Source: an uncultured Clostridia bacterium (GTDB lineage: Bacteria; Bacillota; Clostridia; Christensenellales; UBA1242). Taken from it: a DNA stretch of 50,497 nt. The stretch spans positions 1 through 50,497 of the forward strand of contig CALWFX010000010.1 in assembly GCA_944377765.1 (NCBI GenBank). The letters are read 5' to 3'. The notes below the pieces were generated by a model, which saw only the letters and a list, made by a program, of their open reading frames with translations, searched no databases and was not told the origin of the DNA. The translations under genes and the position numbers were made by a program. Positions 2,540 to 39,589 of the stretch are shown here, piece after piece (positions within the stretch are counted from its first letter, which is position 1; each line of letters begins with the position of its first letter).

Positions 2540-2562
2540 ATATAATCATAGCGGAGGGCAAA

Positions 2563-2856: not shown

Positions 2857-2881
2857 TGTAAATAGGCATTGACAAATTTTT

Positions 2882-2910: not shown

Positions 2911-2932
2911 TTTTTATGGGAGGAGAATGTTT

Positions 2933-3190: not shown

Positions 3191-3192
3191 TT

Positions 3193-3279: not shown

Positions 3280-3444
3280 CTAATTTTTTCAATATTTTTT
3301 ATTTTTTATAACAATTTTTCAAATATTTTAAAGCCAGAAAATAAGATTTTTTTAAATTTTAAACCTTATTTTTTGCGTAAAATTTAAAGTATTTTTTTTT
3401 AAAAATGAATAAAAAATTATTTTATTTATTGTTTTTCTATTTGT

Positions 3445-3474
3445 TTGACTTTTTTTCGTCTATTAATTTATAAT
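3445..3474 (+). promoter_or_regulatory. candidate sigma-A promoter for the 6,906-aa gene
   Basis: TTGACT (3445-3450), 18-nt spacer, TATAAT (3469-3474), about 75 nt upstream of the ATG at 3549. The AT-rich context means chance matches are likely. Confidence 0.35.
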
Positions 3475-3548
3475 TATAATATATAATTTTTACTTACATA
3501 TTTTGATTAAATTTTACTTCATTTGCAAATAGTAAATAAGGAGGCTTC

Positions 3549-3617
3549 ATGAAAAAAATCGCATTTGGTTTTTTAACTGTATTGATGCTTTTAGGAGGAG
3601 TTATTCTTTCGGCTTGT
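3549..3617 (+). other. type II (lipoprotein) signal peptide with lipobox Cys23
   Basis: MKKIAFGFLTVLMLLGGVILSAC has a basic n-region, a hydrophobic core, and L-S-A-C with the Cys codon TGT at 3615-3617. Confidence 0.8.
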
Positions 3618-6600
3618 GGCGAAAAGAATATATATCTTTCTGTGTCTTCTTCGGAAGTTGTTATTTATACAAATTATGAGAATTCAGAATTCAACTATCA
3701 GCGTGCAAATGTTTCTGTTACTCTTGAAGGCTCAGAAGATGGAGTTGGACTTCAAATTGAATCTGGAAAAGACATAATTAAATGCACATCTCCTGAAAAA
3801 GATAGACAAGGAAATTATAATTTTACTATTGAAGAAATTGGAGAAAAAAGCGGTAAGGCTCAAATTAAAGTTTATTCAATTGAAGATCCTTCAATTTACA
3901 AATATGTTAATGTAACTTCTTATACATACCTTACAAAATATCAAGCACTTGACCTTAAAGATGAGGATGGAAGAAGTGGGCTTTATGTAATTAAAGGAGC
4001 ATCTCAAGACTTAACACCTTCAAAATATTTTAATTTTTTGCCAAGTGAAGCGAATGTTGTTGATACAATTTGGACTTTTCAAGGTGGTGATGGACAAGAT
4101 AGTGGACTTACAACTTTGCAGTATGATGGCGATATTATAGCGGAAATTGTGGACAATAAGACCTTGGTGGTTTATGATGAATGTTTTTATCCCACCATAA
4201 CATTGTTTGCTTCTTTTGAAAGACAAACATCAATTTTTGAAACTGTAACTTTTCAAGTTATTGACAGTTCAAGCATAACTTCATTTAAACTTGGCGACAC
4301 AACTTTAATTTCTCAAGATACAACAACAGGCGATATTATTTACGATAATTTTATGGCTGATTTAGTGAGAAATGATGCAAACAATTCTTCTGTTCAAGGT
4401 CAGATGGTTATTTCCACTTTTGACAAAAATATTGAATTGGATGTTGAAGCATATTTTTTAAATTCTAATGGAACTAAATCATATATTGAAAATTATGAAG
4501 ACTACTTTAAACTTGATGTGCAATATTTACCATATAACGATGTAACAGAAGAGATGACAATTAATTTCACTCTTGATGCTCTTTATGACGATTCTTCATT
4601 TGAAATGAAATATGGCGATATCCATATAAACTTTGTTTTAAAATATAGCGAATACACCTACTCAATCAACACTTCTAATTGCGATATTAAACTTAATACT
4701 TACTTTATTCCTGAAAGTATTTTGGTTAGAGATGGCGGAGTTAGCAATATTGGCGGAAACACAATAGATTTATATTCTCAATATTTTTCTTCCTATGGTT
4801 ATGAAATTAATGTTAATGTTTACCCTGATGATGTTGCTTTGAAAGATAGCACCTTTAAGATTAGCATTGATAACGCACATGAAATGGTTAATGATGAAGA
4901 TTATTTTGTGAAAATTTATTACAAAGATAATCCAACAAGACAAGTTAAATTTACAAGGGTGGAAAACACTGACACCTTTGTTTCAGAAGCAATTGCAAAT
5001 GGCACAAGTTTATATTTTACAAGTGGAAACATTTCAAGTAAGTCAGGTCTTAAAATAGATTTTTATGCATCTGCAAATCCATATAATGCCATTCAGTCAA
5101 TTTATGCCAATTTGTTTAAAATTTCAGAGTCTTCTATAATGAAAGTTATGGAAATTGACACCGAAACAGGAGAAACAGAAGATTTTAATTTTGACCAAAC
5201 TTTCTATATTTCTTCTTCTGAAACTTCTTTAAAAACAAAAGAATTTAATTTAAGAATTATGGGAATGGCTTCAATTGCAGGCTTGGAACTTGACTATGAA
5301 CAAAGTCGCAATTTTTCAATTTCAATGGAAATGACTGATAGTTTTGAAGATACTGAAGATGTTAACAACTCTTATGTTGATATTAAGGTAACAATTAGTT
5401 TAACAAGAAGCAATTTTGCTCAAGATTTTAAATTTTCTTTGAAACATAAAACTGGTTTACAATCTGAAATATTTAATATTTCAAGTTTTGCACCAATTGA
5501 AAAGGCAGAAGTTGTTTGTGCTGATGGTGGTTTCACAAATATATATGAGCAAGAGTATTTGGAACAAAACTTTGTTGCAGATATTGATGATGGAAACTTC
5601 ACAATTGCAGATTCCACAATTGTTGATAACTCTCTTTCAAGTTTATTAATTTCAGCAGGCTCTAATGTTGCAATTAATTTGGATTACAACAGTGCCACAT
5701 TAAATCTTGCAAACAACACTGCGGGTTACTACTTTGCTTACTTAGACTATGAAGCATTTGCGAGTCATGACCAAAATCTTGGACTTGATGGCGACACATT
5801 GACTGAAAGATTTAACAATTTGCAGTTTACTGACAGTTTGGATAACCTTACATATTTACCAATTTTTGAAAGTGCTTTTTCAACTTTAAATAACACATAT
5901 TTCTCATACACAAATGGCCAGTTTAAGGTTAGCGATAAAGAATTTGTTGTATATGTTATGGTTGTGTTTAATGGCTATAACGAATTGCATCAAGATTTAA
6001 ATTTGGTTCGTTTCTTTAGATTGGAAAGTTTTTATCCTGTTGACTCACTTAGAAGTGATATAACTGATTTGGAACTTTATTCAAAAGAAAGTTTGAGTGT
6101 TAGCGATGAGAATTTGTCTTATGCTAATGTCAATGTTACTCTTCGTTTAGATGGAAAACTTCCAACCTATTCTGACCTTTCATATTTTTCAATCTCTCTT
6201 GGTAATGGAACTTATTGCAAGGGAGAAGATGAAAGTGGAACTTTCAAGGAAAGAGCATCTCTTACTTGTGTTTCAATTTATAATGACTATGTTTCTCTTT
6301 CAAACTTTAGAGTGGATGAAAGAACTGGTGTTTTGTCATTCAGAATAAGTGCAAATTCAACAAGGTTACAAAGTAGAGTTAGAGATGTTATCACTCTTTA
6401 CTATAATTTTAAGAGTGTGGAAATTCCAACTAACATAAATTTAACAATACTTCAGGCTAATCGTGTGGAAAATGTTACATGGATAAATGAAACTGAAGAT
6501 AGTGAGATATACTTGAATATTGCAACAGATAATGTTGAAGAGCAAACTTTCACAATTTCAACTTCAATTTCGCCAGATGATGCTTATAACAGAAAACTTA

Positions 6601-9600
6601 CAAATTATTATCATCCACTTAACAACAATTCCAGTGTTTTAGACATAAACACAACTTCAACTGGGCAATCTTTCACTCTTACAATTGGAAATCAAAATGA
6701 AGGTGGTTATGGATATTTATATCTCCTTCCAGAAGATATGGTTAAAAATGTTGATAGTATAAGAAAAATTGTTTATTATGGACTTGATGACGAAGGTAAT
6801 TTAAGCACACAGGCAGAATATATTTCTCTTTCTGAAATCAATGGTATCTATGAAGATTTGATTAATGGAACAAATGGTTATGTCAATTATTTCTTAAATA
6901 ACAACAATGAGAAAGTATACTATAAAGATGTTATTTTAAGAATTAAAGTTACAATTGCAGATGGTCAAAGCGAAGATACAGCAATAAGAATTTACTCTGC
7001 TGATGAACTTAGAAATATTGATACAAGATTGTATTATCGCATTATGAACGATCTTGAACTTACAAATTGGACACAACTTACAGAACTTCGTGGCATGATT
7101 TTTGGTAATGATGAAAACATCACTTTAACAATGTCAGGACAAAGTTTGATTGGTAATTTATATGGAACTGTTAAGAACTTAACATTTGTTGGTGCTGTTA
7201 ATGGTGGCGGTTTTGTTGCTGATAATGTTATAAGTGGTGGTGTGATTGAAAATGTTAAGGTTGATGTTCGATATGACAAGGAAAAAGCCGAATGCATACC
7301 AAGTGTTGTAAGTGGCGGTTACTATGTGGAAACAAGCCTTATTGGTAATTATATTGGTGCAATTGCTGGTAGAAATGAAGGCTTGATTACTTCTTGTTAT
7401 AACTATGGTGCAAACTTAACTGCCAGCCTTGAAAATGGTTCTTCTGTTGCTGGTGGTATTGTTGGATTAAACTATGGCAGAGTGGAAAATTGTGGCGTTG
7501 AATTTTATAAATTTACAAGTGTTGAAAGTAATCAATTCTCTGCTCTTTATATTGGTGGTATTGTTGGTGCTGTTGATTGGGGACAAGAACAAGAAGTTTC
7601 TCCAACTATCTATAATTCATATGTATATGCTTTCAGCCTTGAAAATGGAACTGTTGGAAGTGACATTGACATCAACAATGTAAGTTACACAAAACTTGTG
7701 AACTATCAAGAATCAATGGAAAGACCAAGCGAAAATGGCGATGGAAATGTTTACTTTGGCGAATTTATTGGCTACATTATGAATCTTTCTCAAAATAAGA
7801 CCATGATTGAAAATTCATTTGCTTTCCTTGGCGATTTAACAGCAAATAAAAATGCTCAAACCAATTATAGTGTTATTGGTGTTGGTGATTCAATTGAAAG
7901 TTCACCTTTGACTTTAAGAAATTCATATTTAACCAATTTTGTTGTTAAAGAAAATGCTGAAGATGGAACAAAAACTTTGGGACTTGAATTCCGCTATTTC
8001 TTAAGAAATGGAGAAAATAACATTAATTCTCCAATTACTGATGAACAAGACAGTGAAAGTGTAGAAGAAATTTATTCGGCATTCGACACAACAATTTGGG
8101 AGACAGAAAATATTGACAAAGAAGCAAACTTTGGCTTTGCATATTTGAAGAATGTTCGTCAAAATGTCAGCGTTTCAGTTGAACAGATGATTCAGAATGT
8201 TGAAGACAAAGTGCTTGCATTTACTGGTGGAGATAAGGCGGTTATCTTTAAGTATGATGTTAACGAACAAGTTGTTAGTAATGCTGTTCAGTCTGAACTT
8301 GATAGGCTTAACACAATTTCATTAACAGAACTTTTTGGAATTTCAAGTAATGAGATAAGAAGTCTTCTTGTAAGTGTGGATAGACCTGATTATCTTGATT
8401 TTACAACCAATTCTTTAAGCGTTAAAAAGACAACAACAAATCTTGCAACAAAAACTGTAACATTGACTTTGCATAGTCGTATGGATTTCAGCGAAAGCAA
8501 AACTTTTGAAATTATGATTGTTAATGCTATTCCTGAAATTTTAACAACTGTTGGAAACAATGAGGTTAAAGATGGACAAATTGTTAACATTCAAACTGGA
8601 ATTGATAATTCTAAGAAAGTTCAAATAATTTTGGATAACACAATTTATTTGAATGGACAAGAATATACTTTAACAACAAATAGTTATAATTACTTTGTTG
8701 AACTTGATAACAATTTAAATGCTGAAAATGAAAAATATATTGATGAACAAGTTTCAGGCAATGCTGTTGAGTTTATTGCAAGAAATGACAGTGGGGTTAA
8801 TTATATAAGTGCAAATATAAGTGTTGGACTTCTTAATCTTAATTCCACAGATGAAAATTCTAATGAATATGCTTTCAATGAAACAATTAAATCTCAAAGA
8901 CAAAGAAATTTATTGCTTTCATCTTATGTTGGGGCAAATTATGTTAATGCTGATCACACTATTTTAAATATCACACCTTCTGAATTTACATCCTTTAAAG
9001 TAACTATAAATTCTGATAACCCAGAAGAAGATTTAGTGCTTTACATTAACTATAACAACGAAAGATATGATGTTGAAAATGGACAAGTTAAAATTAATGA
9101 TAATTTAGTTTTGGATGTTTCATACACTTTGATTAGTTCAGATAATGGTAATTATGAATATAAAGTTCTTATTAATGTAAACAACGAATACAGGCATAAA
9201 GTTGATACAACTTATTCAATGGATATTGTTGTTAATGCTTTAAGCCAACAAAACAATAGTAATTATGCAAAAATAGTAAAATTTACAGTTGAAAAGCAAG
9301 AAATAAATGACGTTAATGTCAATGCATACACAGTTTCAAGTCGTTTTATAAGAAATAATGTTTGGTATTACACACCAAGCAATACTATATCATCGGCTCT
9401 TGTTCCAGGTGGAGAAAGCATTTTAACAATGGAAATAAGCCCAAGTTTTGCTCACTACTCTCATTTTATTGTGGAATATGAAGTAACTTCTCAAGGCACA
9501 ACTGGTTCTGTTGGACTTTCAAGATTATCATATACTGAAGGTTATGGTTATTATATTGATACTTCTACCACAGAAAATAGAACAAATGGAATTAAAGTTA

Positions 9601-15600: not shown

Positions 15601-18600
15601 ATAGCAGTATAATTAAAACAAACATCCTTGTTAATAACAGTTCTGATGCATTTGTCAATGTTGGCGGGTTTATTGGTGGTATTTCTGATGCAACAACAAT
15701 TCTTTCAATTGGCAATTTGGCTTATGTTGGAAATGTTGTATCTTTTGCAAAAAATCTTGTTTTTGGTGGAATTGTTGGAGATGCTGGATATGCCAGCTCA
15801 TCAGATTTAATTTCAAATGCTGTGTTTGGTGGAAATTTGCGTCACTATGTTAGAAGTAACATAGATAATAAGACTGAGTATACCGATGGAATATTGATTG
15901 CAGGCGGTATTGTTGGTAATATTAACATTCCAAAATCTAGTGTTAATATTACAGAAGTTTATACTTATGGAAATATTTTTGTAAATTATCCTAACAATTC
16001 AACCAAATATTTGAATAAATATTGTTTTGGTGGAATTGTTGGTGCAATTGGTGCTTTAACAGCAAGTAGCAGTGAAACAACTAACACTGTTAGTGTTACA
16101 AATGCATATTCACTTTTAACAAACTTTAATGATAAAATAACCTATAATGGCTATACAACAACCGATTATGTTGCTAATGCAATTGTTGGTTTTGGAGATG
16201 GTTCATCTAATTTGGGAGATAATGTTTACTATTCTTCTGGTGTTAACCTTGCTTATCAAGCAAATGAAAATGCAAATGATGTTTCTTATGGAGTGTATGT
16301 TGAAGATTATCGTGGATATACAATTCAAAACGACACAATCGGAAACACAACAAGTGAAACAGCAGAGACTCCAAGTGATGAGACTAATATTGTTGGCGAA
16401 ATTAAAAATATGTTGACAACTAATTATAATGGTTTGATTGATGCAAATGATATAAATAAATTAAATCCAACATTAATTAACAACAATAGCTTTACAGAAG
16501 ATGGAAAAGGGATTGATAACAATGAAGAATTAATAAATAATGCAAACGACAACGATATTAAATGGTATTATGCAAATTCTGATATTAGTATAAACAATGG
16601 CAGATATATCACAGATTTAAAAAATGCTGTTGTTGTTGGAAATGGCAGAACGATAAGTTATCAATTGATTGCTACAGCATCAAATGATTATGGTATCTTC
16701 CAAAATGTTGGTGGTATTAATGACACATTTACAGCAATTTCAGGTTTTGTTGCAGAAATTAATTTGGATATTGAGTTGGATAAGGAAGATAAAACTAATT
16801 ATATTGGTGGATTTATAAGTAAGAGTAAAATAAAAGATGATAATTCTCTTTACTATAATTCTGTTATCATATATGGAATTGGTGTTACTGGACAAATTGA
16901 AATTGGTGGAGATGGCAGTGCCAATGTTGGTGGGCTTGCAGGCGTTATGTATAATGGCTTAATTTCCAACTCCTTTACTGATGTCAATATCATTTATCAT
17001 GGTGGTGTTCAAAGAAGTGAAACAAATTCTGTTGTGTCATATGTGGCAAGTTCAAATGTAAGTTCAATAGCAAATAACACTGGCGATTCTATGGTTGATA
17101 TAATTGACACATTTGCAGGGGGAGCAGTTCAAAGTTATGTTTCTGCTAACCTATACTCTTTCAATGGAATTTTGTCGGTTGGCACAACAAATAATGGTGA
17201 ATATACAAATGCAAATCCAGATTTAAGAATTTTCGATTCTTACACATATTCTCAAATTTCGAGAGTGGACTATGAGTTTGGAACAAGTGGCATTTCGGGA
17301 ACATTCAGTTATAAAGGAAGTTATGCTGGTAAAAATGCAGATGAGATAAACATTCACAGTGGATTATATTTCAATAATTATAATACTGATACAAATGATG
17401 CAAATAATACAATTAAATTTACAGGTTCATCAACAAAAATTGACGATATTTCTCTTAACTATAATGGCGAAGTAGGTTCAGGATACGCAATTAAACTTGA
17501 AGAAAGAGAAGATAAAGAAAATACTGAAACAGGTGAAATAGAAAAAGCAGAGCCTGTAACCCATTCACTTTGGTTTAATTCTCCATATAGAAACTATGGT
17601 TATGCAACAACTGGTTTTGCATATTTAAGAAATGTAACTGTTTACAGTCAAGCAAGACTGGGTGGCATTGCTAGCGATGATCCAGATATAGCACAAGATG
17701 AAGATGGAAATAGAGTTGAACTTGCATACAAAACATATGACTACACTCGATTAACAAATGACCAAGCATTAGGAATTAAAAAAGATAATGGCAAAATTTA
17801 CTTTGAAAATGATGAAGAATTAGAAGTTTTCTTTGCAGTTCCTAATGGCGGAAAGTTTAAGCAAATTGCAGATATGTATAATCCTGAAAGTGAAGATACA
17901 ACAACTCAGACTGTTACTGAAATAGACGCAAAATATAATTTCTTCTTACTATATGATTTAAATTTAAATAATTTAACAGGTGATGAATCATGGACTGCAA
18001 ACAGTGACATTGGAACTGAAGACTATAATACATATATTGATGGACAAAATCATCAAATAGAATTTAATGGAAGTGGAAATGGTTTCTTTGGTGTGGCTTA
18101 TGCTGATTTAGAAAATATGAGAATAATTCTAAGTTCAGATTTAACAACTGCAAATGCAACTGAAGAAGATATATCTGTTGGCGGTAATTCAGAGACAGTA
18201 ACATATGAATACTATGGTGTGCTTGCTGGCGAACTTATTGGAAGTGCAACCAATATAACTGTAAGTGGTAATATTGAAGTAAGAGGCGATAGTAACAGAG
18301 TTATCGGCGGTCTTGTTGGTAAACTCAGTAATGGAAGCACTGTTACTGCAATTGAAAGTTTGGTAAATATTAATGTTGCTAAATCTACTAGTGGTAATAG
18401 TGGTATTAACTATGTGGGCGGTGTTGTTGGTTTTTCAGAAGGAACAATTTCAACATCTTCTAACTCTGGAAATATAATTGTTAATAACACATCAAGTTCA
18501 AAAAATCTTGCAAATCTCACTCCAACAGATGGTGTTATCAGCAATTTAACAGCAGAATTACCTAAATATGATGATAGCCTTTCAGATCTTGAAAATAATA

Positions 18601-21600
18601 CTTCTATTGAGGGAAATGAAAAAGTTTCTAATAACTTGCAAAGTGTTATTGGTGGTGTTGCTGGCTATAATGGTGGCACAATTGAAAAATCATATAACAC
18701 TTCATCAGTAATGAATAATTACAATGCTACAGATGCAAGCGTTGGCAATCTTGTAAGTGGTGGAATTGCTGGTTATTCAATTGGAGATATAGCAAATTCA
18801 TTTAACACAGGCTATGTTGTCAGCGGAAACACTTCCAACACAGGACTTGCCATTTCTGGCGGTATTGTTGGCTTTGGCAATAGTGGTGAATACGCAAACA
18901 ATATAAACGACGCCAAAGTCCAAGCAGTAAGTGAGTTAGATAGTGGAAGGTATAAAATTACTCCATTGTATTCTTTTGGAACTAATGAAAAAATAACAAA
19001 TTACTCTAGGACGGTTACTTTACGAATTGAATATAATATAGATAGTGAAAGTGAAGAAAAGGATGCAAGAAAAGTTTATGCTTATGGTATTGGTTATATA
19101 ACAAATTACACAAGCAATGATTTTGACAATAATACTAAAATGAATACTAACAAAAATTTGGCTTATGACGAAATTGTAAACGATGGTAATTTGGGATATA
19201 TTAAAAAGATATTCCAAAAAGATTATAGTGTGCAAAGATATTATGGTGCAGATCATGATAATGACAATAGATATGATGTTGAAGATAGTTATAATTTTGC
19301 AATAAATAATGGTGACCCAGATTTTAAAATAAGTGGTTATGATGCCTATGGTTTTGTAAGTAGGTTAAATTTAAATTATACTTATTCTTTTGATATTACT
19401 GCATTTAAGCACGGGTATATTGTCGAGAACACTTCAGATGATTACTACTATAAGAGGGGTACGGACTTTTTTAAGATTTCAATCACTGATTCAGAGCCAA
19501 ATGAATATAGAGACAACAGGGCTATACCTAGTGGTACAATAGATGTAAATGGTAGCACACTTAATGATAGTGATACTTCAGGTCTTTATCCTGGTGGAAC
19601 AACAAGTTATTATTTGTCAATGCCTTTCTATGGTGAAGAAGGTAATTATACTTATCAAGAAATAATTAGTGAAGAAAATAACCATACATATTATGGAGTA
19701 AAATCCGATTTAACAAGCAATGAGTATAACATTGTTAAAAAAGAGTTAAACTATAAGTATGAAGAAATTAACAAATCAAGAAAAGTTTACGTAAATAGCA
19801 CAGAAGCAGAAAGTATAAATATTAATGGAATATCTTACAATATTGTTAACAATGAAACTCAGCTTAGTAGTTACACAAGTGGATGGAACACGAATGGAAG
19901 TATAACACTAGAAATACCAAGCGTTTCTCATGGAGATAAAACTATAGCTTCATCACAACCAAAAATTGATTATGTTGAGTATGAAATAAAAGTTAATTAT
20001 GGGACTGATTATCAAACAAGTGCAACTTTAACGAAAAATAGTCAGAACTTAACACCAATTGGCTCCAGTGAAGAAATTGTTAATACAGGGAATAATAGTT
20101 ATACATTAAACTATAGTGTTTATTATAATAAGACTGATTTAGGAAATGCTTTAAAAACAGTGTTAGGTGATGATTATGCATCTAAAGATTATAGATTAAG
20201 TGTTTCATTAAATTATAATATAGAGTATGAATTTGAAGATAGTTTTGATTTATATAAAAATACAGTAACCGTTAATGGTGCTAATGTAAGCATTGATGTT
20301 GTTGATGATGCAAATAAACTGATAACTTTGGGAACTTATTTAAAGAACAGTAATGCAACTAAAACAAATGGTGATTTTGATATTGAATTTAAAGATGCAA
20401 GAGGACAAAGAGTTTATATAAATGTAGATGGAACAATACTTGATGGAACAGATGGAAATTATGGCGTTCAATCTATTAATGTAAATAGTGCTGGATCAGG
20501 AATGATAAATCTTGGAGATGCTTCAAATGCAAGTGCTTTTGCAACTGCAATTAACAATTTAACAATGACCATAAAATATCAAGTATATGGTAGTGGTAAT
20601 TATGTAATTCCAGTTGAAAGTGGCAGATTTGAAATAGAATCGGAAATTTCAAAAAGTTATAGATTTACAAGTGTAGAGTCTGGATTAAATTACAATGACG
20701 ATTATTCAGATAGTTACAATATTGAAGCAAGTGAATCAAAAATAATTTTCAGTGTCTATGAAAATAAACTTATAGAACATGATATTGTTGCTGTGTCATT
20801 TGTTTATAATCCATTAAACACAGGGGTAACTTTTGAATATAATACTGATTCTGGATTTGTAAAACATACAGGTGTTATTGAAGGCTGGGGCGGAACAGGC
20901 AGTGTAGAATATGTAATTAATGAAAATACGATTGAATTTACATGTGTAAACAGCGGAGATATTAATACTTTCATAAATTCCTTTAAGAGCATTACAAAAT
21001 TAAATATTGAAAAAGAAAAGTCTAGCTTAGAAATTGAACCTATTATAACTCAATCTGTTGGTGATGGTTTGGTAACTGTAAATTATAAATTTGATGGAGT
21101 TCTTCCAAGTGGTTACACATATAATAGTCAAACAAATGTCATTACAAGAAACGAGGGAACAAGTGTTAATCTTACATTAAATTATGTTAAAGATGGAGAT
21201 ATTAATATTCAAGACGCAAGTTCTGTGACATTAAGTTCGAATAATGATAAAATTGTTATCTATTACATTAAAAATACATTTGAAAAGAATATTATTTCTG
21301 GTAATACTCTAAATGTTAAAATTGAAGATTCAAATAAAGTTGAATATGAATTTTATCGTGAAAATTCTGATTTGCAAACAGGTGGATTGTTGGTAAGTAA
21401 AGATTATTCTGTTACAAAGGTTATATCTGAAAATTTTCCAATAAGAATTGCAAGAAATGTTACAAGACAGGGTGTTGGAATTCTTACATATGATTATGAA
21501 CAAGCAACAATTTACGATGTTAACAATTCATATAGTATTGCTGTATTAAAAGATGGCGATAAAGAAGATTTTTATTTGATATATAAAGGTACAGATGGCT

Positions 21601-24269
21601 CTTTAACTAATAAAGGAATTGAACATTTTGATTTAAGATTGTTATATAGTGAATATTTTGACTCTATTATTCAAGAAGGCGAAGGCATCTTTTCACAAAA
21701 AGCAACAATTAAATTTAATTATAGTTCGCCATTATCACAAGAATTTGTAAATGATGGCAAATATTCAATTGATGGTGATGGAAATGTTTTATATGATGGA
21801 AATGCTGTGACAGAAACAATGCTATTTTATGACTTAAATGATTTGAAGTTTGTATATTATGTTGTTTATAGTTCTGGTGAAGAAGAGATCAATGAAGCCC
21901 TAACATTAAATAACTCATTTAATATTGATGAATTTTTGAATTTGGGTGAAGTGAGTGAAATTCCTGAAATATTTTTAGTTGCAGATGAAATTTTAAATTA
22001 TGCAGATAATAGTGTTGACACAATTATTAAATTTAATGAAGACTATTTGGCAACAATTCCTGAAAATATAACATTTAATTTGCCAGATTATACTCCAGTT
22101 GATGATAGTCTTGATAGCAATTTATATTGTGGTGAAGAAAAAGTATCTTACAATTTCAATATAGCAAATGGAACTATTAATGAAATTGAAGGAGAATTAC
22201 TAAATGATATTGATAATTCAATTAAAGTGACTGAAAATACAAATCAATATAATTTTGAATACATTGGCAATGGTGTAAATGATGAAGAATCATTAAAAGA
22301 AAAATATAATGGAATTCCATATGGTGCACAAAATTTCGATGTAACATTTAATGTAAATGCTAATTTCAACTATACATCAAATAATTTAGTTTACAACGCA
22401 GAAGATTTAAGTGGAAATAATATAATTATTAAAAATAATATTTATTATGATGATCAAATATCTGTTACAGGCATTAAACTCTATGGAGAAAATCATATTA
22501 TTTCACAAAACTTATCATTGTCTAACTCAAGTTACATGTTCTCGGTTGATGGAAAAGGATATGTCTCAAATTCATATTTAGTTGCTATCTTAACAATGAA
22601 TGATAGTATATATATGAATAATCAAAGGAGTGCTATTCAAGTTGAAAATACCAGCACAACAAAGAATTTATCTGTATATGGAAGCATTAGAAATATCAAT
22701 CCAAACAATGATTTAATTGTTACTGGATTGTCGTTGAAATATGATTCCTCAACTGCAACCTCTTCATCGGAAAAGAATTTTCAATCTCACTTATCTTTAA
22801 TTGGTTCAAATATAGAGGATAGCCCTATTATTAGTTCATCAAAAACTGATGGAGAAAATGTAAAAGTTAAAATTGGAGAAGTTTATATAGATAAAAATAC
22901 AACTTTAGAAGAATTAACATTATCAAGAAATACGATATTGATTTCTGGAAATGGTGGTAATGCATCTAATGGTATGGATGGAACAGGGTATGACTATTAT
23001 GGGAATGGATATTCTGGAACTGATGGTGGCAAAGGCGGAAATGCTGGTGAAATTGGAATCACGTATAAGTTGGAAGAGAAAGATGGGAAGGATGAAACAA
23101 CAATTACTAAGCCAACTGACTTAACAAAAGCAATTTCAGGAGTAGTTGGTGCTTCTGGTAATGGTGGAAATGGACATGATGGTAAGAATGCGAGCGCACA
23201 TAACGAAAATGGTTGGCGTAATGGATATACTCAATATGATTCATCACGCGGAGATGATGCTTTTAAATTTAATTATAGCACTGAGGTTAATAATGGTTTA
23301 GCCGGTGGCGGTGGGCATGGAGGAACCGCAGATACTTCTAATAAGAGTGCCTCTTCACAAAAAACCAATAGAAAATATCAAACAATTTCTGGCAATGGTG
23401 GCTCAGGTGGATTAGGGTTGATGTATTATTCTAGAGATATTAAGCTTGGAGACCGCTTTGAATACACTGATTTTGAATATCCAGACTATGATTACAAAAG
23501 TCTTTACAAAGCAACAAAATATAATGAATATTCTTCTTGGTATAAAACTGCTGGTGGTGGTGGAACTTCTGGTGATTATGAAAATGCCGCAAGTGGTGAC
23601 AAGGGAAGATTCTTTGGTGCTGGCGATGGCTTCTTTAGAGGAGATAGTTATGATGCATCAACTATAGGATATTATTGGTATGATGGTGCCAGATTATTTG
23701 GTAACTTACAACTAATTTCAACATTTAGTAATTATGGTTATTATGATGCTGAATCTGCAAATGGTTGGTATAATTTCTGGGGTAGACCTAGAAGTGCACA
23801 GTTCATTGCAGATGGTGGATTAGATATGTATAGTGGTGCTAGTGTAGAAGAAATTAAAACAGCATTTAACTATTTCTTATATGGTGGACGTGTTCATTGG
23901 AAAGCATGGACAGGAGACGGATATATTGAGAAGCCATCTTATATTGAAAGTTTGAATAGATTATTCCAAGAAAATGATAATGGAACCTATTCTTATAAAG
24001 TGCCTTCAACTTATTCAGTTAATTATCATGGTGAATGTGTATGGAAATATGCGTTTTATGGTGGCTCTGGCGGAGGAGAAGGAACAGGTGAATCTGGAAA
24101 TGGAGGAACACCTTATACGAAAATTATTTATGGGTTCTGTGGGCCTATAGAAAATTATGATAATTATTCTTATGCTAATAGAAAAGTTTTCTTCACTAGA
24201 GATGATATGGTGACATCTGCTGGTTCTTATGGACAAATTTCAAATTTAGCAAATTTAATAATTGAATAA
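3549..24269 (+). CDS. giant (6,906 aa) surface lipoprotein with multiple GLUG-motif repeat modules and a Gly/aromatic-rich C-terminal domain
   Basis: Uninterrupted 20,721-nt ORF in AT-rich DNA. AAGGAGG lies 4 nt before the ATG. The signal peptide has lipobox L-S-A-C. At least seven modules contain entry motifs such as FNSFDGNGYTIHINSF, FKGLIDGNSFTISNINL and YIDGQNHQIEFNG, and I spotted about 20 GG[ILVF][VAI]G motifs by eye (AGGIVGL, IGGIVGA, VGGLVGL, IGGLVGY...). No C-terminal TM or LPXTG. Confidence 0.93.
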   Translation: MKKIAFGFLTVLMLLGGVILSACGEKNIYLSVSSSEVVIYTNYENSEFNYQRANVSVTLEGSEDGVGLQIESGKDIIKCTSPEKDRQGNYNFTIEEIGEKSGKAQIKVYSIEDPSIYKYVNVTSYTYLTKYQALDLKDEDGRSGLYVIKGASQDLTPSKYFNFLPSEANVVDTIWTFQGGDGQDSGLTTLQYDGDIIAEIVDNKTLVVYDECFYPTITLFASFERQTSIFETVTFQVIDSSSITSFKLGDTTLISQDTTTGDIIYDNFMADLVRNDANNSSVQGQMVISTFDKNIELDVEAYFLNSNGTKSYIENYEDYFKLDVQYLPYNDVTEEMTINFTLDALYDDSSFEMKYGDIHINFVLKYSEYTYSINTSNCDIKLNTYFIPESILVRDGGVSNIGGNTIDLYSQYFSSYGYEINVNVYPDDVALKDSTFKISIDNAHEMVNDEDYFVKIYYKDNPTRQVKFTRVENTDTFVSEAIANGTSLYFTSGNISSKSGLKIDFYASANPYNAIQSIYANLFKISESSIMKVMEIDTETGETEDFNFDQTFYISSSETSLKTKEFNLRIMGMASIAGLELDYEQSRNFSISMEMTDSFEDTEDVNNSYVDIKVTISLTRSNFAQDFKFSLKHKTGLQSEIFNISSFAPIEKAEVVCADGGFTNIYEQEYLEQNFVADIDDGNFTIADSTIVDNSLSSLLISAGSNVAINLDYNSATLNLANNTAGYYFAYLDYEAFASHDQNLGLDGDTLTERFNNLQFTDSLDNLTYLPIFESAFSTLNNTYFSYTNGQFKVSDKEFVVYVMVVFNGYNELHQDLNLVRFFRLESFYPVDSLRSDITDLELYSKESLSVSDENLSYANVNVTLRLDGKLPTYSDLSYFSISLGNGTYCKGEDESGTFKERASLTCVSIYNDYVSLSNFRVDERTGVLSFRISANSTRLQSRVRDVITLYYNFKSVEIPTNINLTILQANRVENVTWINETEDSEIYLNIATDNVEEQTFTISTSISPDDAYNRKLTNYYHPLNNNSSVLDINTTSTGQSFTLTIGNQNEGGYGYLYLLPEDMVKNVDSIRKIVYYGLDDEGNLSTQAEYISLSEINGIYEDLINGTNGYVNYFLNNNNEKVYYKDVILRIKVTIADGQSEDTAIRIYSADELRNIDTRLYYRIMNDLELTNWTQLTELRGMIFGNDENITLTMSGQSLIGNLYGTVKNLTFVGAVNGGGFVADNVISGGVIENVKVDVRYDKEKAECIPSVVSGGYYVETSLIGNYIGAIAGRNEGLITSCYNYGANLTASLENGSSVAGGIVGLNYGRVENCGVEFYKFTSVESNQFSALYIGGIVGAVDWGQEQEVSPTIYNSYVYAFSLENGTVGSDIDINNVSYTKLVNYQESMERPSENGDGNVYFGEFIGYIMNLSQNKTMIENSFAFLGDLTANKNAQTNYSVIGVGDSIESSPLTLRNSYLTNFVVKENAEDGTKTLGLEFRYFLRNGENNINSPITDEQDSESVEEIYSAFDTTIWETENIDKEANFGFAYLKNVRQNVSVSVEQMIQNVEDKVLAFTGGDKAVIFKYDVNEQVVSNAVQSELDRLNTISLTELFGISSNEIRSLLVSVDRPDYLDFTTNSLSVKKTTTNLATKTVTLTLHSRMDFSESKTFEIMIVNAIPEILTTVGNNEVKDGQIVNIQTGIDNSKKVQIILDNTIYLNGQEYTLTTNSYNYFVELDNNLNAENEKYIDEQVSGNAVEFIARNDSGVNYISANISVGLLNLNSTDENSNEYAFNETIKSQRQRNLLLSSYVGANYVNADHTILNITPSEFTSFKVTINSDNPEEDLVLYINYNNERYDVENGQVKINDNLVLDVSYTLISSDNGNYEYKVLINVNNEYRHKVDTTYSMDIVVNALSQQNNSNYAKIVKFTVEKQEINDVNVNAYTVSSRFIRNNVWYYTPSNTISSALVPGGESILTMEISPSFAHYSHFIVEYEVTSQGTTGSVGLSRLSYTEGYGYYIDTSTTENRTNGIKVNPTETDLKTGVYNFRIYISSSFTANSNVKLNITFFDGNDRLETYTYNYIVDYLKEAEVLVDGAHSVMLAKGDTAEVSITLELDQTLYNNTITLENNSASITLSEITETVADSYKVYTSTLRTSVLSTLQDNKSTGAFYVKAAVSRYVNGVQEIKESYATVYLVDFTIDAEKTKVVGSTDTVNYNGVEYDAFNAYINDSKGQIAFDYTIAPENYVYDETNVKEQEAVKNLMIKRNEFIKSNYYADSQAGYYINYRYNELTGVFEEQTLKERLYYVNSDGSATAIWNGQDYIKNTTFDFGEETNGTLGIIGRQTGRVLMRLETIVIVGNTTFVYEYDFVVVVEVWTDEEVPLPIYTAEEFLTYLNGSPDDEGNTHAADYILMNDIVLDEYTPLSSQYFNSFDGNGYTIHINSFEFSTESTSLNLALFSEVAENSTIKNVRVNLYNGGQITVNLNLYTQVNVAGFALENNGIIYNCEVLAYYDEENSTSRLSGDTGLVVKFVRGNGTDPVYLTSSDVNISDVNISGFVNNNNNVITNSRVGGTSIGKIISDDTTDYYINYRLPTFTIQGQCNVSGFVGSNVGTITASFANAVQINNEMRSTTSRTAGFVLNNTGNVQTSYVQGVEVNESLFFEGSTIATTGKVAGFVYSNSGLVKNSYVNIAFEIDASRSYLSAGFVYENNEDGEITLCYSSVKMSNTDINEMSFSGVDELGNDLNLNKDGITYSYYYSESRNDQSTQASYDTGAYAITDVEYEETFYRFSFSSEENAYNGIWMMTNKGITLVSANQIAFSNRYIEYSSEDEYSLFYNTLTDYASYRQIDLSYGSINNPIIIRNADDFAKATGKAQELEISSYKKYYNDREVFGNYRLVNNIDFSEIDQNTDGTDDIKLTTTDKDFKGLIDGNSFTISNINLGGSASVENYGIFKRIVDNAVIMNLGLQVASVHNSNANIVGTLAGTVIDSRLISINLSPMERSDDEEIQAVSIAGYNIVGGLVGLVMGDSKLSDIQVTDIDVDSGYYSASKEVNGNKSYTGVELRNLVEMNSSLTSKVRFVSYAGGIAGYVDIYDSITDSFVRYSPSTQVTSYNIATIRVLNSVDIYGEVAGGLFGYIGESTLAYDLGLEINADMALNTPSYITAKNLYAGGIVGENHGGLYAIYAEHTRELQDLIETNIYNYYNNSSTVERGQMSIFSYTQNDTKHYGRRYNNPYYIGGLVGYAGSGYISVGYNRLNVVSNEAETFTEENKLRTLAVGGLVGYVDSKNYYASDVISGNPDVSYYLNEVYFSGVINANTAVEAGGLIGRISSTSKVAIDYVNSVPYYDLNTDINKVFSFIGGFDSALPSNLYVLDTAGGYNDLMTAGGVSGGTGSVPSVGIMTEYGAVDAETLNVVKPINDNYSLNFDENSYLKIDRIASSSMSTLYTKMNNYFLENGWDITQWEHEVDTLYPRIVLTPKLSVVYLDASENSIRNVMDLIENGSTMTIVVRGRVDENSDAAHTDVDLRDYINASNRFSNYAGKIVSYYSYMNNSTEEGTVSEEQRDNAGKLIGGKTGARVGLIIDQPIFENAGTNFEMEDINIYYARSDYAPNSISSLLINGTANDATFTNVNIYLNESITLEANAQGYAGLIVNRANSTTFSNITINLRNSSTQDIKIKFETYNGNSNQESNYFGLLAGYMSQASQYKGIFVSNVLINSLSSIDKPISTLNVDVDISKGDTTGDGKAIKNLYFGLWAGNASIASGNSVNTFDAMLSNLTTSVIKETNITINSSDNVELSNLYVGGYFGSVGTTSITRYNADADSGVNLSTLVENLNIIQNIGVSNIYAGLVAGTVNSTNFNFEENENQKDLMLGLSGSYRQAKDKKIGNVSVGAIFGQTNANITLGQKVDVNFNVLGNYVTTTQAEVSTLANEDEVKGIYIKNDMALDDNSDIKLDTNNNAQTDYLQVAGIANVGSLIGNMVGGTMRYRAMDIKGEIQIKNSGDDDTNAGVFNVGAIGYLGGGEIRSGETTDSSIIKTNILVNNSSDAFVNVGGFIGGISDATTILSIGNLAYVGNVVSFAKNLVFGGIVGDAGYASSSDLISNAVFGGNLRHYVRSNIDNKTEYTDGILIAGGIVGNINIPKSSVNITEVYTYGNIFVNYPNNSTKYLNKYCFGGIVGAIGALTASSSETTNTVSVTNAYSLLTNFNDKITYNGYTTTDYVANAIVGFGDGSSNLGDNVYYSSGVNLAYQANENANDVSYGVYVEDYRGYTIQNDTIGNTTSETAETPSDETNIVGEIKNMLTTNYNGLIDANDINKLNPTLINNNSFTEDGKGIDNNEELINNANDNDIKWYYANSDISINNGRYITDLKNAVVVGNGRTISYQLIATASNDYGIFQNVGGINDTFTAISGFVAEINLDIELDKEDKTNYIGGFISKSKIKDDNSLYYNSVIIYGIGVTGQIEIGGDGSANVGGLAGVMYNGLISNSFTDVNIIYHGGVQRSETNSVVSYVASSNVSSIANNTGDSMVDIIDTFAGGAVQSYVSANLYSFNGILSVGTTNNGEYTNANPDLRIFDSYTYSQISRVDYEFGTSGISGTFSYKGSYAGKNADEINIHSGLYFNNYNTDTNDANNTIKFTGSSTKIDDISLNYNGEVGSGYAIKLEEREDKENTETGEIEKAEPVTHSLWFNSPYRNYGYATTGFAYLRNVTVYSQARLGGIASDDPDIAQDEDGNRVELAYKTYDYTRLTNDQALGIKKDNGKIYFENDEELEVFFAVPNGGKFKQIADMYNPESEDTTTQTVTEIDAKYNFFLLYDLNLNNLTGDESWTANSDIGTEDYNTYIDGQNHQIEFNGSGNGFFGVAYADLENMRIILSSDLTTANATEEDISVGGNSETVTYEYYGVLAGELIGSATNITVSGNIEVRGDSNRVIGGLVGKLSNGSTVTAIESLVNINVAKSTSGNSGINYVGGVVGFSEGTISTSSNSGNIIVNNTSSSKNLANLTPTDGVISNLTAELPKYDDSLSDLENNTSIEGNEKVSNNLQSVIGGVAGYNGGTIEKSYNTSSVMNNYNATDASVGNLVSGGIAGYSIGDIANSFNTGYVVSGNTSNTGLAISGGIVGFGNSGEYANNINDAKVQAVSELDSGRYKITPLYSFGTNEKITNYSRTVTLRIEYNIDSESEEKDARKVYAYGIGYITNYTSNDFDNNTKMNTNKNLAYDEIVNDGNLGYIKKIFQKDYSVQRYYGADHDNDNRYDVEDSYNFAINNGDPDFKISGYDAYGFVSRLNLNYTYSFDITAFKHGYIVENTSDDYYYKRGTDFFKISITDSEPNEYRDNRAIPSGTIDVNGSTLNDSDTSGLYPGGTTSYYLSMPFYGEEGNYTYQEIISEENNHTYYGVKSDLTSNEYNIVKKELNYKYEEINKSRKVYVNSTEAESININGISYNIVNNETQLSSYTSGWNTNGSITLEIPSVSHGDKTIASSQPKIDYVEYEIKVNYGTDYQTSATLTKNSQNLTPIGSSEEIVNTGNNSYTLNYSVYYNKTDLGNALKTVLGDDYASKDYRLSVSLNYNIEYEFEDSFDLYKNTVTVNGANVSIDVVDDANKLITLGTYLKNSNATKTNGDFDIEFKDARGQRVYINVDGTILDGTDGNYGVQSINVNSAGSGMINLGDASNASAFATAINNLTMTIKYQVYGSGNYVIPVESGRFEIESEISKSYRFTSVESGLNYNDDYSDSYNIEASESKIIFSVYENKLIEHDIVAVSFVYNPLNTGVTFEYNTDSGFVKHTGVIEGWGGTGSVEYVINENTIEFTCVNSGDINTFINSFKSITKLNIEKEKSSLEIEPIITQSVGDGLVTVNYKFDGVLPSGYTYNSQTNVITRNEGTSVNLTLNYVKDGDINIQDASSVTLSSNNDKIVIYYIKNTFEKNIISGNTLNVKIEDSNKVEYEFYRENSDLQTGGLLVSKDYSVTKVISENFPIRIARNVTRQGVGILTYDYEQATIYDVNNSYSIAVLKDGDKEDFYLIYKGTDGSLTNKGIEHFDLRLLYSEYFDSIIQEGEGIFSQKATIKFNYSSPLSQEFVNDGKYSIDGDGNVLYDGNAVTETMLFYDLNDLKFVYYVVYSSGEEEINEALTLNNSFNIDEFLNLGEVSEIPEIFLVADEILNYADNSVDTIIKFNEDYLATIPENITFNLPDYTPVDDSLDSNLYCGEEKVSYNFNIANGTINEIEGELLNDIDNSIKVTENTNQYNFEYIGNGVNDEESLKEKYNGIPYGAQNFDVTFNVNANFNYTSNNLVYNAEDLSGNNIIIKNNIYYDDQISVTGIKLYGENHIISQNLSLSNSSYMFSVDGKGYVSNSYLVAILTMNDSIYMNNQRSAIQVENTSTTKNLSVYGSIRNINPNNDLIVTGLSLKYDSSTATSSSEKNFQSHLSLIGSNIEDSPIISSSKTDGENVKVKIGEVYIDKNTTLEELTLSRNTILISGNGGNASNGMDGTGYDYYGNGYSGTDGGKGGNAGEIGITYKLEEKDGKDETTITKPTDLTKAISGVVGASGNGGNGHDGKNASAHNENGWRNGYTQYDSSRGDDAFKFNYSTEVNNGLAGGGGHGGTADTSNKSASSQKTNRKYQTISGNGGSGGLGLMYYSRDIKLGDRFEYTDFEYPDYDYKSLYKATKYNEYSSWYKTAGGGGTSGDYENAASGDKGRFFGAGDGFFRGDSYDASTIGYYWYDGARLFGNLQLISTFSNYGYYDAESANGWYNFWGRPRSAQFIADGGLDMYSGASVEEIKTAFNYFLYGGRVHWKAWTGDGYIEKPSYIESLNRLFQENDNGTYSYKVPSTYSVNYHGECVWKYAFYGGSGGGEGTGESGNGGTPYTKIIYGFCGPIENYDNYSYANRKVFFTRDDMVTSAGSYGQISNLANLIIE
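6984..8155 (+). repeat. GLUG-type module A of the 6,906-aa protein (aa about 1146-1535; approximate)
   Basis: IRIYSADELRNID...GMIFGNDENITLTMSGQSLIGNLYGTVKNLTFVG, then IGAIAGRNEGLITSCYNYG, VAGGIVGLNYGRVENCG and YIGGIVGAV. It ends near TIWETENIDKEANFGFAYLKNV. Confidence 0.6.
10650..11960 (+). repeat. GLUG-type module B (aa about 2368-2804; approximate), paralogous to 46856-48100
   Basis: PIYTAEEFLTYL...FNSFDGNGYTIHINSF...IKNVRVNLYNG, then NVAGFALENNGIIYNCEV, NVSGFVGSNVGTITASF, RTAGFVLNNTGNVQTSYVQG, KVAGFVYSNSGLVKNSYVN and LSAGFVYENNEDGEITLCYSS. Confidence 0.65.
11133..11166 (+). repeat. perfect 15-bp in-frame tandem duplication (2 copies plus a partial third)
   Basis: tctgatgtaaatatt occurs at 11133-11147 and again at 11148-11162, followed by tctg. 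It encodes SDVNI-SDVNI. Confidence 0.9.
12072..13935 (+). repeat. GLUG-type module C (aa about 2842-3462; approximate), paralogous to 48209-49710
   Basis: NPIIIRNADDFAKATGK...YRLVNNIDFSEIDQ...FKGLIDGNSFTISNINLGGSASVENYGIFKRI, then VGGLVGLVMG, YAGGIAGYVD, VAGGLFGYIG, YAGGIVGENHG, YIGGLVGYAGSG, AVGGLVGYVD and EAGGLIGRIS. It ends near WEHEVDTLYPRIVL. Confidence 0.65.
13950..16330 (+). repeat. GLUG-like degenerate repeat region D (aa about 3468-4260; approximate)
   Basis: Serial Y-x-G-[LG]-x-x-G motifs: YAGLIVNRAN, YFGLLAGYMS, YFGLWAGNAS, YVGGYFGSVG, YAGLVAGTVN, VGGFIGGISD, FGGIVGDAGY, IAGGIVGNIN and FGGIVGAIG. Confidence 0.5.
16520..17650 (+). repeat. GLUG-type module E (aa about 4325-4700; approximate)
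   Basis: ITDLKNAVVVGNGRTISYQL...YGIFQNVGG...ISGFVAEINLD...YIGGFISKS...NVGGLAGVMYNGLISNSFTD. It ends near GFAYLRNVTVYS. Confidence 0.5.
17815..18980 (+). repeat. GLUG-type module F (aa about 4756-5144; approximate)
   Basis: YNFFLLYDLNLNN...YIDGQNHQIEFNGSGNGFFGVAYADLENMRI, then YYGVLAGELIGSATN, VIGGLVGKLSNG, YVGGVVGFSEGTIS, VIGGVAGYNGGTIEKSYN, VSGGIAGYSIGDIANSFN and ISGGIVGFGNSG. Confidence 0.55.
22947..24266 (+). other. C-terminal glycine-run / aromatic-rich domain of the 6,906-aa protein (last about 440 aa)
   Basis: Short Gly-runs (GNGGNASNGMDGTG, GTDGGKGGNAG, GASGNGGNGHDG, AGGGGHGGTAD, SGNGGSGGLG, AGGGGTSGD, GGSGGGEGTGESGNGG) alternate with Tyr/Trp/Phe/Asp-rich segments (FEYTDFEYPDYDYKSLY, GYYWYDGARLF, NGWYNFWGRP). 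Confidence 0.7.
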
Positions 24270-25084: not shown

Positions 25085-25087
25085 CAA

Positions 25088-25114
25088 ATAGACGAGTGAT
25101 TGCTCGTCTATTTT
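25088..25114 (+). terminator. intrinsic terminator after radC paralogue 1
   Basis: atagacgag (25088-25096) pairs with ctcgtctat (25103-25111), loop tgattg, then TTT(T). Confidence 0.75.
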
Positions 25115-39505: not shown

Positions 39506-39589
39506 ATGTCAAAAGCATTAAAGAGAAGTTTTGCTTACATAATTCTTGCAATGGCGTTTGCCTTTGCAGGACTCTTTTTATTTGGTTGT
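39506..39589 (+). other. type II (lipoprotein) signal peptide with lipobox Cys28
   Basis: MSKALKRSFAYIILAMAFAFAGLFLFGC, with the Cys codon TGT at 39587-39589. Confidence 0.75.

Follow-up and report, generated by a model that had tools for sequence, protein, structure and literature searches.

The question raised by this locus is what a bacterium with a genome of about 1 Mb does with a single gene of 20.7 kb. The window analysed here, by which we mean the whole stretch of 50,497 nt (contig CALWFX010000010.1 of assembly GCA_944377765.1, from an uncultured Clostridia bacterium), carries an open reading frame (ORF) at 3549..24269 on the plus strand, which encodes a predicted lipoprotein of 6,906 amino acids (aa), referred to below as the giant protein. 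The giant gene is intact, and its position and lipid anchor have been kept across at least 12 species-level lineages despite very fast sequence change; it is therefore a prime candidate for the cells' physical interface with what they live on. Our answer, given with moderate confidence, is that the protein is an adhesive fibre tethered to the membrane, with its binding specificity determined at the distal end.

Integrity, anchor and chromosomal position of the giant gene

The giant ORF runs from its ATG to its stop codon with no internal stop, as a sequence-only reading of this DNA had claimed, and 396 and 1,025 stops are present in the other two forward frames over the same interval. At the ORF's own base composition (31% GC), a run of 6,906 codons without a stop would arise by chance with a probability of about 10^-269, and the GC contents of the three codon positions (41/36/18%) give a clear coding signature. 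A Shine-Dalgarno sequence, AAGGAGG, lies at 3538..3544 (+), 4 nt 5′ of the ATG, in agreement with the strong ribosome-binding signal noted earlier; GGAGG is equally spaced from the start codon in the orthologues L010, L011, L013, and L019. A sigma-70-type promoter-like site (TTGACT-18 nt-TATAAT; 3445..3474, +) with 11 of 12 consensus matches is situated about 75 nt before the start codon and, being a consensus match within very AT-rich DNA, is suggestive only.

No dispersed DNA repeat longer than 41 nt and no tandem repeats of note were found in the giant ORF; collapse of repeats during assembly is therefore no realistic worry. At least 10 independent assemblies hold open, collinear orthologues, and the earlier concern about mis-assembled repeats was set aside on both grounds. 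The giant ORF is a genuine, intact chromosomal gene. An origin by faulty assembly, or a pseudogene in decay, in favour of which it can be said that the window is a contig of a metagenome-assembled genome and that very long modular genes are sometimes mis-assembled, is effectively refuted by the lack of such repeats, by zero stops across 20.7 kb of 31% GC DNA and by the orthologues in independent assemblies. Together with a 3,539-aa paralogue described below, the ORF makes up 62.07% of the window, matching the estimate of about 62% made beforehand.

The N-terminus of the giant protein has the features of a lipoprotein, namely a positively charged n-region followed by an h-region that is hydrophobic and, within about 35 residues, by a lipobox ([LVI][ASTVI][GAS]C). 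In the predicted signal peptide with lipobox (MKKIAFGFLTVLMLLGGVILSAC; 3549..3617, +), Cys23 is the putative lipidated residue. A lipobox is present in all N-termini that were recovered, from 11 giant-type and 9 paralogue-type homologues. Outside the signal peptide, the giant protein has no Kyte-Doolittle window of 1.8 or above, and neither an LPXTG-like motif nor a C-terminal hydrophobic window, the features of a sortase-anchored adhesin, was detected. The lipobox signal peptide and the missing C-terminal anchor, both proposed earlier, thus held in these scans, the former with its layout conserved in 20 homologues. A small predicted lipoprotein of 222 aa with its own lipobox (MFKKILVALSMVIVCLSVAGC; 33519-34187; no family match) indicates that lipobox signals are used elsewhere in the same genome, which suggests that the lipoprotein pathway is in use there.

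Orthologues L004, L005, and L006 came from a scan of one genome per species. Their giant ORFs leave the fetched DNA and are at least 5,591, 5,950, and 6,248 aa long, respectively; they are collinear with aa ~1300-6900 of the window protein, with identities of 52%, 42%, and 34.5% over 4,200-5,580 aa, at loci where UvrB is 94%, 91%, and 85% identical. When only the first 1,150 aa were used to scan metagenomes, no relatives were returned because single-sequence patterns are too specific. With a profile of the conserved core, 60 metagenomic loci were retrieved, many from human gut metagenomes, and the giant-type orthologues L007-L019 showed core identities of 36-63%. Complete giant-type ORFs encode 6,037 aa (L010), 6,574 aa (L018), and approximately 6,556 aa (L009). 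The survey of relatives for orthologues and length variation that had been proposed therefore gave collinear proteins of 6,037-6,574 aa when complete.

Among the orthologues whose ends were captured, to which all statements on synteny and the lipobox apply, the position of the giant gene is constant. It lies 3′ of a 178-aa ORF (251-787), a DUF1779 gene, a SpoIIQ-like M23 peptidase gene (1700-2311; 78 bits, below the NCBIfam cut-off), and the SpoIIID gene (2927-3190), the last of which, with the M23 gene, is directly upstream in all orthologous loci; radC, uvrB, and uvrA follow. No tRNA genes, long repeats or recombinases flank the giant gene, and the direct repeats in the window are all of 57 nt or less. 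The strict synteny and the lack of these elements indicate that it is a resident chromosomal gene, not the cargo of a mobile element.

Module architecture, uneven conservation and the glycine-rich tip

All parts described here are on the plus strand. Downstream of the signal peptide is an N-terminal region of aa 24-1145 (3618..6983), presumed to be a membrane-proximal stalk, in which no Pfam domain was found. GLUG-like module 1 (aa ~1146-1560; 6984..8228) scores 23.7 bits against Pfam GLUG at aa 1297-1317 and is followed by a spacer (aa ~1561-2350; 8229..10598) that has no GLUG motifs and whose sole match is a sub-threshold one to Teneurin_ABD. The conserved core (aa ~2351-3460; 10599..13928) comprises GLUG-like modules 2 and 3, each opening with the head motif DGNG.TI. 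Modules 4 and 5 (aa ~3461-4660; 13929..17528) were recognised by motif clusters and weak profile cross-hits. Module 6 (aa ~4661-5145; 17529..18983; Pfam GLUG 24.1 bits) is flanked in the alignments by the conserved motifs WFNSPYRNYGYATTGF and NDAKVQAVSEL. Beyond it are a distal non-GLUG region that is hypervariable by orthologue identity (aa ~5146-6285; 18984..22403), a pre-tip module rich in predicted β-strands (aa 6286-6465; 22404..22943), and a Gly-rich C-terminal tip (aa 6466-6906 plus the stop codon; 22944..24269) defined by its motifs and a Gly content of 15-17%. Three parts of the layout proposed from the sequence alone were recovered in this division: about 1,145 aa of N-terminal non-GLUG sequence, a later non-GLUG stretch of about 1,100 aa (1,140 aa as placed here), and the distinct Gly-rich tip.

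The six to seven GLUG modules claimed at the same time fared less evenly. Clusters of GG[ILV][IVA]G are present at six places, aa ~1219-1301, 2477-2588, 3004-3308, 3834-4118, 4398-4460, and 4956-5103, and the seventh module, aa 6286-6465, is β-rich and lacks the motifs. The gathering score of Pfam GLUG (PF07581), 20.5 bits, was passed only by modules 1 and 6, and this with the protein cut into pieces of 533-900 aa; when it was scanned as two pieces (3,200 and 3,906 aa), no Pfam family rose above threshold. A stretch of the core with GLUG-like motifs reached 15.0-17.6 bits, modules 4 and 5 matched no Pfam family, and just one of five core orthologues reached as much as E 0.087, so that four of the six modules are under the threshold. 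Profiles built from the orthologue alignments gave weak but consistent cross-hits between the GLUG-bearing regions (E 1e-3 to 1e-6). These cross-hits and the DGNG.TI head motif that the modules share make "GLUG-like solenoid modules" a fair label, with GLUG membership itself appearing marginal. GLUG motifs are known from IgA1 and Zmp proteases.

No internal repeats were found in the giant protein by BLASTP self-comparison or by phmmer; the lack of any BLASTP self-match indicates that the modules are ancient and highly diverged. Scans of the protein against NCBIfam and PHROGs gave nothing meaningful, PDB sequence searches with each half were empty, and the conserved-core profile gave one chance hit in PDB. 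A property of the search tool bears on these results. With its default filters, HMMER silently loses matches in very long proteins of biased composition: a domain with about 50% identity to the query was missed in proteins of 5,600-6,250 aa and recovered only with --max, and GLUG was missed in the two long pieces of the giant protein. Whole-protein Pfam scans of the giant protein are accordingly misleading, and in automated annotation the domains and homologues of giant proteins are likely to be under-called.

Conservation is uneven along the protein. The best-conserved part, aa 2100-3300, is approximately 80%, 67%, and 55% identical in L004, L005, and L006, and the hypervariable part, aa 5400-6300, is 31%, 23%, and 19% identical; in the tip, identity is 44-53%, 32-41%, and 34-36%, respectively. 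BLAST collinearity with the complete orthologues L009, L010, and L018 ends at aa ~5270-5360. A stable base with a fast-changing, exchangeable far end is expected where a structure encounters a variable ligand at its distal end. Variation driven by a diversity-generating retroelement or by repeats was considered and rejected, as no reverse-transcriptase domain is encoded by the window ORFs, the direct repeats do not exceed 57 nt, and tRNA genes are absent from the window.

Tips come in at least two kinds. Type A, with the motifs GNGGN.SNG.DG, NGGNGHDG.NA, AGGGG.GG, GNGGSGGLG, TAGGGG, LFGNLQLI.TFS, GGTPYT..IYG, and FFTRDDMVTSAG.YG, is found in the window protein, L004-L006, L010, P0001, and P0003-P0016 and ends in ...GGTPYT..IYGY...FFTRDDMVTSAG.YG. 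Type B (L009, L018, and P0002) has alike Gly-rich motifs at its start and a different ending. A profile of aa 6286-6906 retrieved 15 relatives from 1.84 billion representative proteins, all apparently C-terminal fragments of the same family; this number is a lower bound because the default HMMER filters lose matches inside very long proteins. A search of 5.8 billion database proteins with the last 1,906 aa gave one collinear relative (P0001), and a 5-sequence profile added only P0002. A 17-sequence tip profile gave zero matches in the protein database, probably owing to a poor profile or to saturation by Gly-rich words. No Pfam family was detected in any of 14 tip sequences and no PHROG matched, nor was the tip found in viral contigs. 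The Gly-rich tip thus appears to be a new domain family without Pfam, PHROG or PDB relatives.

In P0001, encoded on one metagenomic contig (L003 1-6936), module 6, the variable region, and the tip form a separate ORF of 2,292 aa without a signal peptide, which starts 8 nt past the stop of another ORF and still has radC next downstream. Its N-terminus resembles a tail fibre or a DUF285 protein (DUF285 E 0.0021). The gene may have been split, domains may have been swapped, or the assembly may be at fault. A phage origin of the tip, to which the tail-fibre-like N-terminus might point, was rejected since the tip is absent from viral contigs and PHROGs.

AlphaFold2 was run twice on the tip region, with mean predicted local distance difference test (pLDDT) values of 28 and then 44. 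For aa 6286-6906, the first 180 residues were modelled as a ladder of β-strands with pLDDT 55-78, and the Gly-rich part had values of 25-50. A Foldseek search of PDB with the low-confidence model of the tip region listed mainly parallel β-helices, all non-significant (E ≥0.34). Of the earlier claim that the modules are GLUG-type and β-helix-like, the motif clusters and two modules over the Pfam threshold stand, and the fold was left unconfirmed by the models. In a PDB profile search, the tip weakly matched four Obg-family GTPases (E 0.017-1.2) in their N-terminal region, which is Gly-rich and has the polyglycine-II-type "Obg fold". These matches may serve as a lead toward a polyglycine-II-type tip fold and are not evidence for one.

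Some type-A tips (P0003, P0004, P0007, L005, and L006) contain, after the FGNLQ..TFS motif and before GGTPYT, a hydrophobic insert of about 40-60 aa resembling two transmembrane helices. In L005 it is within the C-terminal ~350 aa of the ORF ending at 17854, and in L006 it is in the ORF ending at 18748; the window protein has no such insert. The insert could serve to enter a target membrane or to anchor the protein at a second point.

Host organism, proposed function and alternatives

The UvrB encoded in the window is 90% identical to that of Candidatus Caccovivens faecavium, which places the owner of the giant gene near Candidatus Caccovivens, in family UBA1242 of the Christensenellales. Ca. 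Caccovivens corresponds to GTDB UBA11517 in this family and order, and its type genome has 1.1 Mbp with 34% GC (PMC8035907). The giant gene would occupy approximately 1.9% of such a genome, or 2.8% together with the paralogue. Genomes of UBA1242 range from 0.67 to 1.6 Mb and lack amino-acid, nucleotide, and lipid pathways as well as standard transporters, with sporulation genes being kept (PMC12306168); the SpoIIID and SpoIIQ-like genes of the window agree with this retention. The family has been proposed to be an obligate symbiont or parasite, perhaps drawing metabolites from partner cells through cell contacts, in a study where giant proteins go unmentioned (PMC12306168). In broiler chickens, UBA1242 abundance is negatively associated with body weight (PMC13155120). 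Bacteria of this family are widespread in the gut and uncultured. A gene of the class-II fructose-bisphosphate aldolase (FBA) family is present at 32495-33448 (-) (Pfam E 1.5e-87). FBA has been reported to be lacking from UBA1242 genomes (PMC12306168), and the window gene may be of the tagatose-bisphosphate type or reflect a lineage difference.

The giant gene is intact, its lipobox, synteny, and collinearity are conserved, its conservation is uneven, and no recognisable enzyme, toxin or anchor domain is encoded. In the reading that we favour, the protein would be exported through Sec and cleaved by signal peptidase II, and the lipidated Cys23 would anchor it on the outside of the cytoplasmic membrane. 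The ~6,880 residues beyond would form an extended, mostly β-structured fibre consisting, in order, of the stalk (aa 24-1145), about six GLUG-like solenoid modules with spacers, the hypervariable region (aa ~5150-6285), and the conserved Gly-rich cap. At the far end, the hypervariable region and the cap would bind a ligand on another cell, host mucus or a particle, and the rapid distal divergence and the alternative tips would stem from evasion or from shifts in binding specificity. A long membrane-tethered fibre with its distal end contacting a cell or substrate had also been proposed in the sequence-only reading, and the support gained for it is indirect. The tether is consistent with the lipobox in 20 homologues and the lack of a C-terminal anchor; the contacting end is consistent with the sharp drop of conservation in the distal 1,100 aa, the alternative tip types, and the lack of a catalytic domain. 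The same reading's suggestion of more than a simple adhesin was not borne out, as nothing in the analysis shows a function beyond adhesion.

Several points weigh against the adhesive fibre. No adhesin domains (Ig-like, lectin, MSCRAMM and similar) were found by Pfam anywhere in the protein. The β-helix and fibre geometry and the fold of the tip are unproven, given models with mean pLDDT of 28 and 44 and a non-significant Foldseek list, and the hydrophobic insert of some tips could indicate membrane insertion over simple binding. The conserved radC partner is not accounted for by an adhesin. Finally, surface exposure, fibre shape, binding function, and the identity of the ligand are inferred only.

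A more far-reaching proposal is made tentatively. The giant lipoprotein may be the attachment tether of an obligately partner-dependent UBA1242 bacterium, a Gram-positive counterpart to the attachment structures of Patescibacteria and mycoplasmas. Its distal region and tip would recognise, and in the insert variants perhaps penetrate, a specific partner envelope, and the VirB4-linked paralogue would supply a contact-dependent conduit for metabolites or DNA.

The radC-like gene bears on a different proposal, in which the conserved N-terminal part of about 5,300 aa presents or delivers a variable C-terminal cassette acting on, or inserting into, a neighbour cell, as in contact-dependent effectors and polymorphic toxins of the CdiA, Rhs or WapA type. 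The gene (24299..25084, +) encodes a JAB-domain protein of 261 aa (Pfam RadC E 3.3e-13; NCBIfam RadC family) and starts 29 nt past the giant ORF. No terminator was found between the two by a terminator scan, and they are probably co-transcribed; a terminator-like hairpin right after radC (25086..25113, scored on the minus strand) is a possible end of the transcription unit. Adjoining radC was seen in all seven captured 3′ ends (L003-L006, L009, L010, and L015). It evolves fast, with identities of 75%, 52%, and 53% where UvrB has 94%, 91%, and 85%, and keeps the H-x-H...S..D motif (AHCHPYGEAFPSKSD). A second radC-like JAB-domain gene is located at 31734-32498 (-), 7 kb from the one linked to the giant gene.

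A small, fast-evolving gene invariably next to the giant gene is what an effector with its immunity gene might show, as are the collinear N-terminal bulk with a distal ~1,000-1,500 aa that cannot be aligned by BLAST, the alternative tip types, and the helical-hairpin-like hydrophobic insert in five type-A tips (P0003, P0004, P0007, L005, and L006). However, radC is present with both tip types and so is not behaving as a cognate immunity gene. No toxin domain or pre-toxin motif was detected by Pfam in the distal region or the tip, the variable part exceeds 1,000 aa and is far above typical toxin cassettes, uvrB and uvrA lie downstream instead of orphan toxin or immunity modules, and the window protein is without the insert. 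The hallmarks of a polymorphic toxin or a contact-dependent inhibition system are thus missing at the giant gene, and we consider an effector quite unlikely.

It is likewise improbable that the solenoid modules are a surface array of polysaccharide lyases, hydrolases or a protease harvesting nutrients for a metabolically poor cell. In its favour, GLUG motifs occur in the proteases named above, the Foldseek list for the pre-tip module was led by pectate lyases, tailspikes, alginate lyases, and IgA1 protease, and the organism needs external nutrients (PMC12306168). That list was non-significant, however, with all E ≥0.34 from a low-confidence model, and the PDB sequence searches were empty. No catalytic family was found in any segment by Pfam or NCBIfam. 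Neither HExxH nor HxxEH is present across the 6,906 aa, and Peptidase_M26 gave no Pfam match; from the lack of HExxH, the giant protein is not an IgA1-protease-like enzyme.

Little credence is also given to a role in a VirB4-powered apparatus for contact-dependent transfer or uptake, which would link the giant protein to the 3,539-aa paralogue. The latter (39506..50125, +) is a predicted lipoprotein with the lipobox LFGC, collinear with the giant protein to aa ~3200; modules 4-7 and the tip are absent from it. The N-terminal 1,250 aa of the giant protein aligned with the paralogue types in hhalign with 99.9% probability (E 3.8e-32, 999 columns), and the cores share 28.6% identity over 908 columns in BLASTP, so the two types are, judged by their sequences, true paralogues. 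Paralogue-type genes L021-L034 have complete ORFs of 3,257-3,820 aa, with one of 5,339 aa, and all carry a lipobox. A VirB4-like ATPase gene (36801..39473, +) ends 32 nt before the paralogue; its product has two predicted N-terminal transmembrane helices and matches to the Pfam TraG P-loop and DUF87 families. It also matches, over its full length, NCBIfam NF045975, the VirB4 of mycoplasma integrative and conjugative elements (ICEs), with 587.4 bits, just under the cut-off of 590. This chromosomal pair is placed between hflX and rpoB.

The pairing, repeated in five related loci (L022, L024, L031, L033, and L034), argues for such an apparatus, and so do two analogies. A surface lipoprotein encoded by a Mycoplasma agalactiae ICE, CDS14, is required for conjugation, probably via cell contact (PMC6030558). 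Chromosomal type IV secretion system (T4SS) clusters without relaxase are widespread in Patescibacteria, and T4SS genes were identified as essential for epibiotic growth in Saccharibacteria (bioRxiv 10.1101/2025.01.22.634366). Both are analogies for the paralogue and not evidence on the giant gene. In the window, 12.5 kb separate the giant ORF from the VirB4-like gene downstream, with uvrBA, a metallo-β-lactamase-fold (MBL) gene, radC, fba, and hflX between them, and the 6,906-aa gene was never found adjoining virB4. At the more distant paralogue-type loci L023 and L028, the place upstream is taken by other ORFs, of about 1,000 aa, and not by VirB4. The 50-kb window contains neither VirD4, VirB6 nor a relaxase, nor any further T4SS gene, and the giant ORF thus lacks both an adjacent virB4 and the further components of a T4SS locus. 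The pairing of the giant gene with VirB4 and RadC genes that had been pointed out earlier therefore holds for radC, next to it in 7 of 7 captured 3′ ends; VirB4 is coupled to the paralogue, a linkage confined to a subclade.

An envelope or spore-surface structural protein, i.e., an S-layer-like, wall-spanning or exosporium filament instead of an adhesin, is very improbable. The gene is always directly 3′ of the sporulation cluster with the SpoIIQ-like M23 peptidase and SpoIIID genes, and its Gly-rich C-terminus is loosely reminiscent of exosporium filament proteins. UBA1242 genomes also keep their sporulation genes (PMC12306168). But both the lipoprotein signal and the promoter-like site of sigma-70 type speak for anchoring in the vegetative membrane, Pfam detected no SLH, CWB2 or collagen-like repeats, and the hypervariability is limited to the distal end, which is more typical of a ligand-binding tip.

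Comparison with known systems

No published description of this giant lipoprotein family was found. That gut Clostridia can have giant surface proteins is known in general (bioRxiv 10.1101/2023.11.21.568195; PMC11573180). The present family is new and essentially unannotated, and the giant gene is a concrete target through which the cells could be imaged or enriched, expression analysed, and partners identified.

CdiA and Rhs polymorphic toxins share with the giant protein a long conserved N-terminal part, a filament in their case, and a variable C-terminal end. The giant protein differs in having no FHA, Rhs or LXG domain, no recognisable toxin or immunity-like gene, and a variable part of more than 1,000 aa. 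Contact lipoproteins of mycoplasmas, such as CDS14 (PMC6030558), resemble it in being lipid-anchored (predicted here) and in belonging to a genome-reduced host of Firmicute lineage; a further likeness is that the paralogue is linked to a VirB4 of the mycoplasma-ICE type. The giant protein is far larger than CDS14, and its gene is chromosomal and syntenic instead of mobile and is not beside virB4.

The non-catalytic regions of streptococcal IgA1 and Zmp proteases have, like the giant protein, clustered GG[LIV][VA]G motifs and the module head F.G.fDGNG.TI. The giant protein differs from the proteases in having neither an M26 domain nor HExxH, and IgA1 protease was not retrieved by PDB sequence or profile searches. 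In polyglycine-II domains (the Obg fold, phage T4-like gp38, and ALK/LTK), as in the tip, short GxGGxGG-type motifs alternate with β-strand-like segments. Moreover, gp38 carries its Gly-rich domain at the distal end of a fibre, as the giant protein would do if it is the fibre that we infer. The tip is unlike these domains in that it has no significant match, no Pfam family and no occurrence in viral contigs, and its model is of low confidence.

Giant adhesins of Firmicutes, such as Ebh of Staphylococcus aureus (~10,000 aa) and the giant extracellular proteins of Apilactobacillus kunkeei (PMC4494060), share with the giant protein a very large single ORF, a secretion signal, a modular β-rich architecture low in cysteine, and rapid divergence. 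They are held by a C-terminal LPXTG motif or transmembrane segment, whereas the giant protein has an N-terminal lipobox anchor, and it differs further by its lack of near-identical tandem repeats and of the usual adhesin Pfam domains and by a host genome of about 1 Mb. The general kind of protein, a giant Gram-positive surface fibre, is therefore known, and the family is set apart within it by its unusual anchor, by a tip domain that is novel, and by its owner, a presumably partner-dependent bacterium whose genome measures ~1 Mb.

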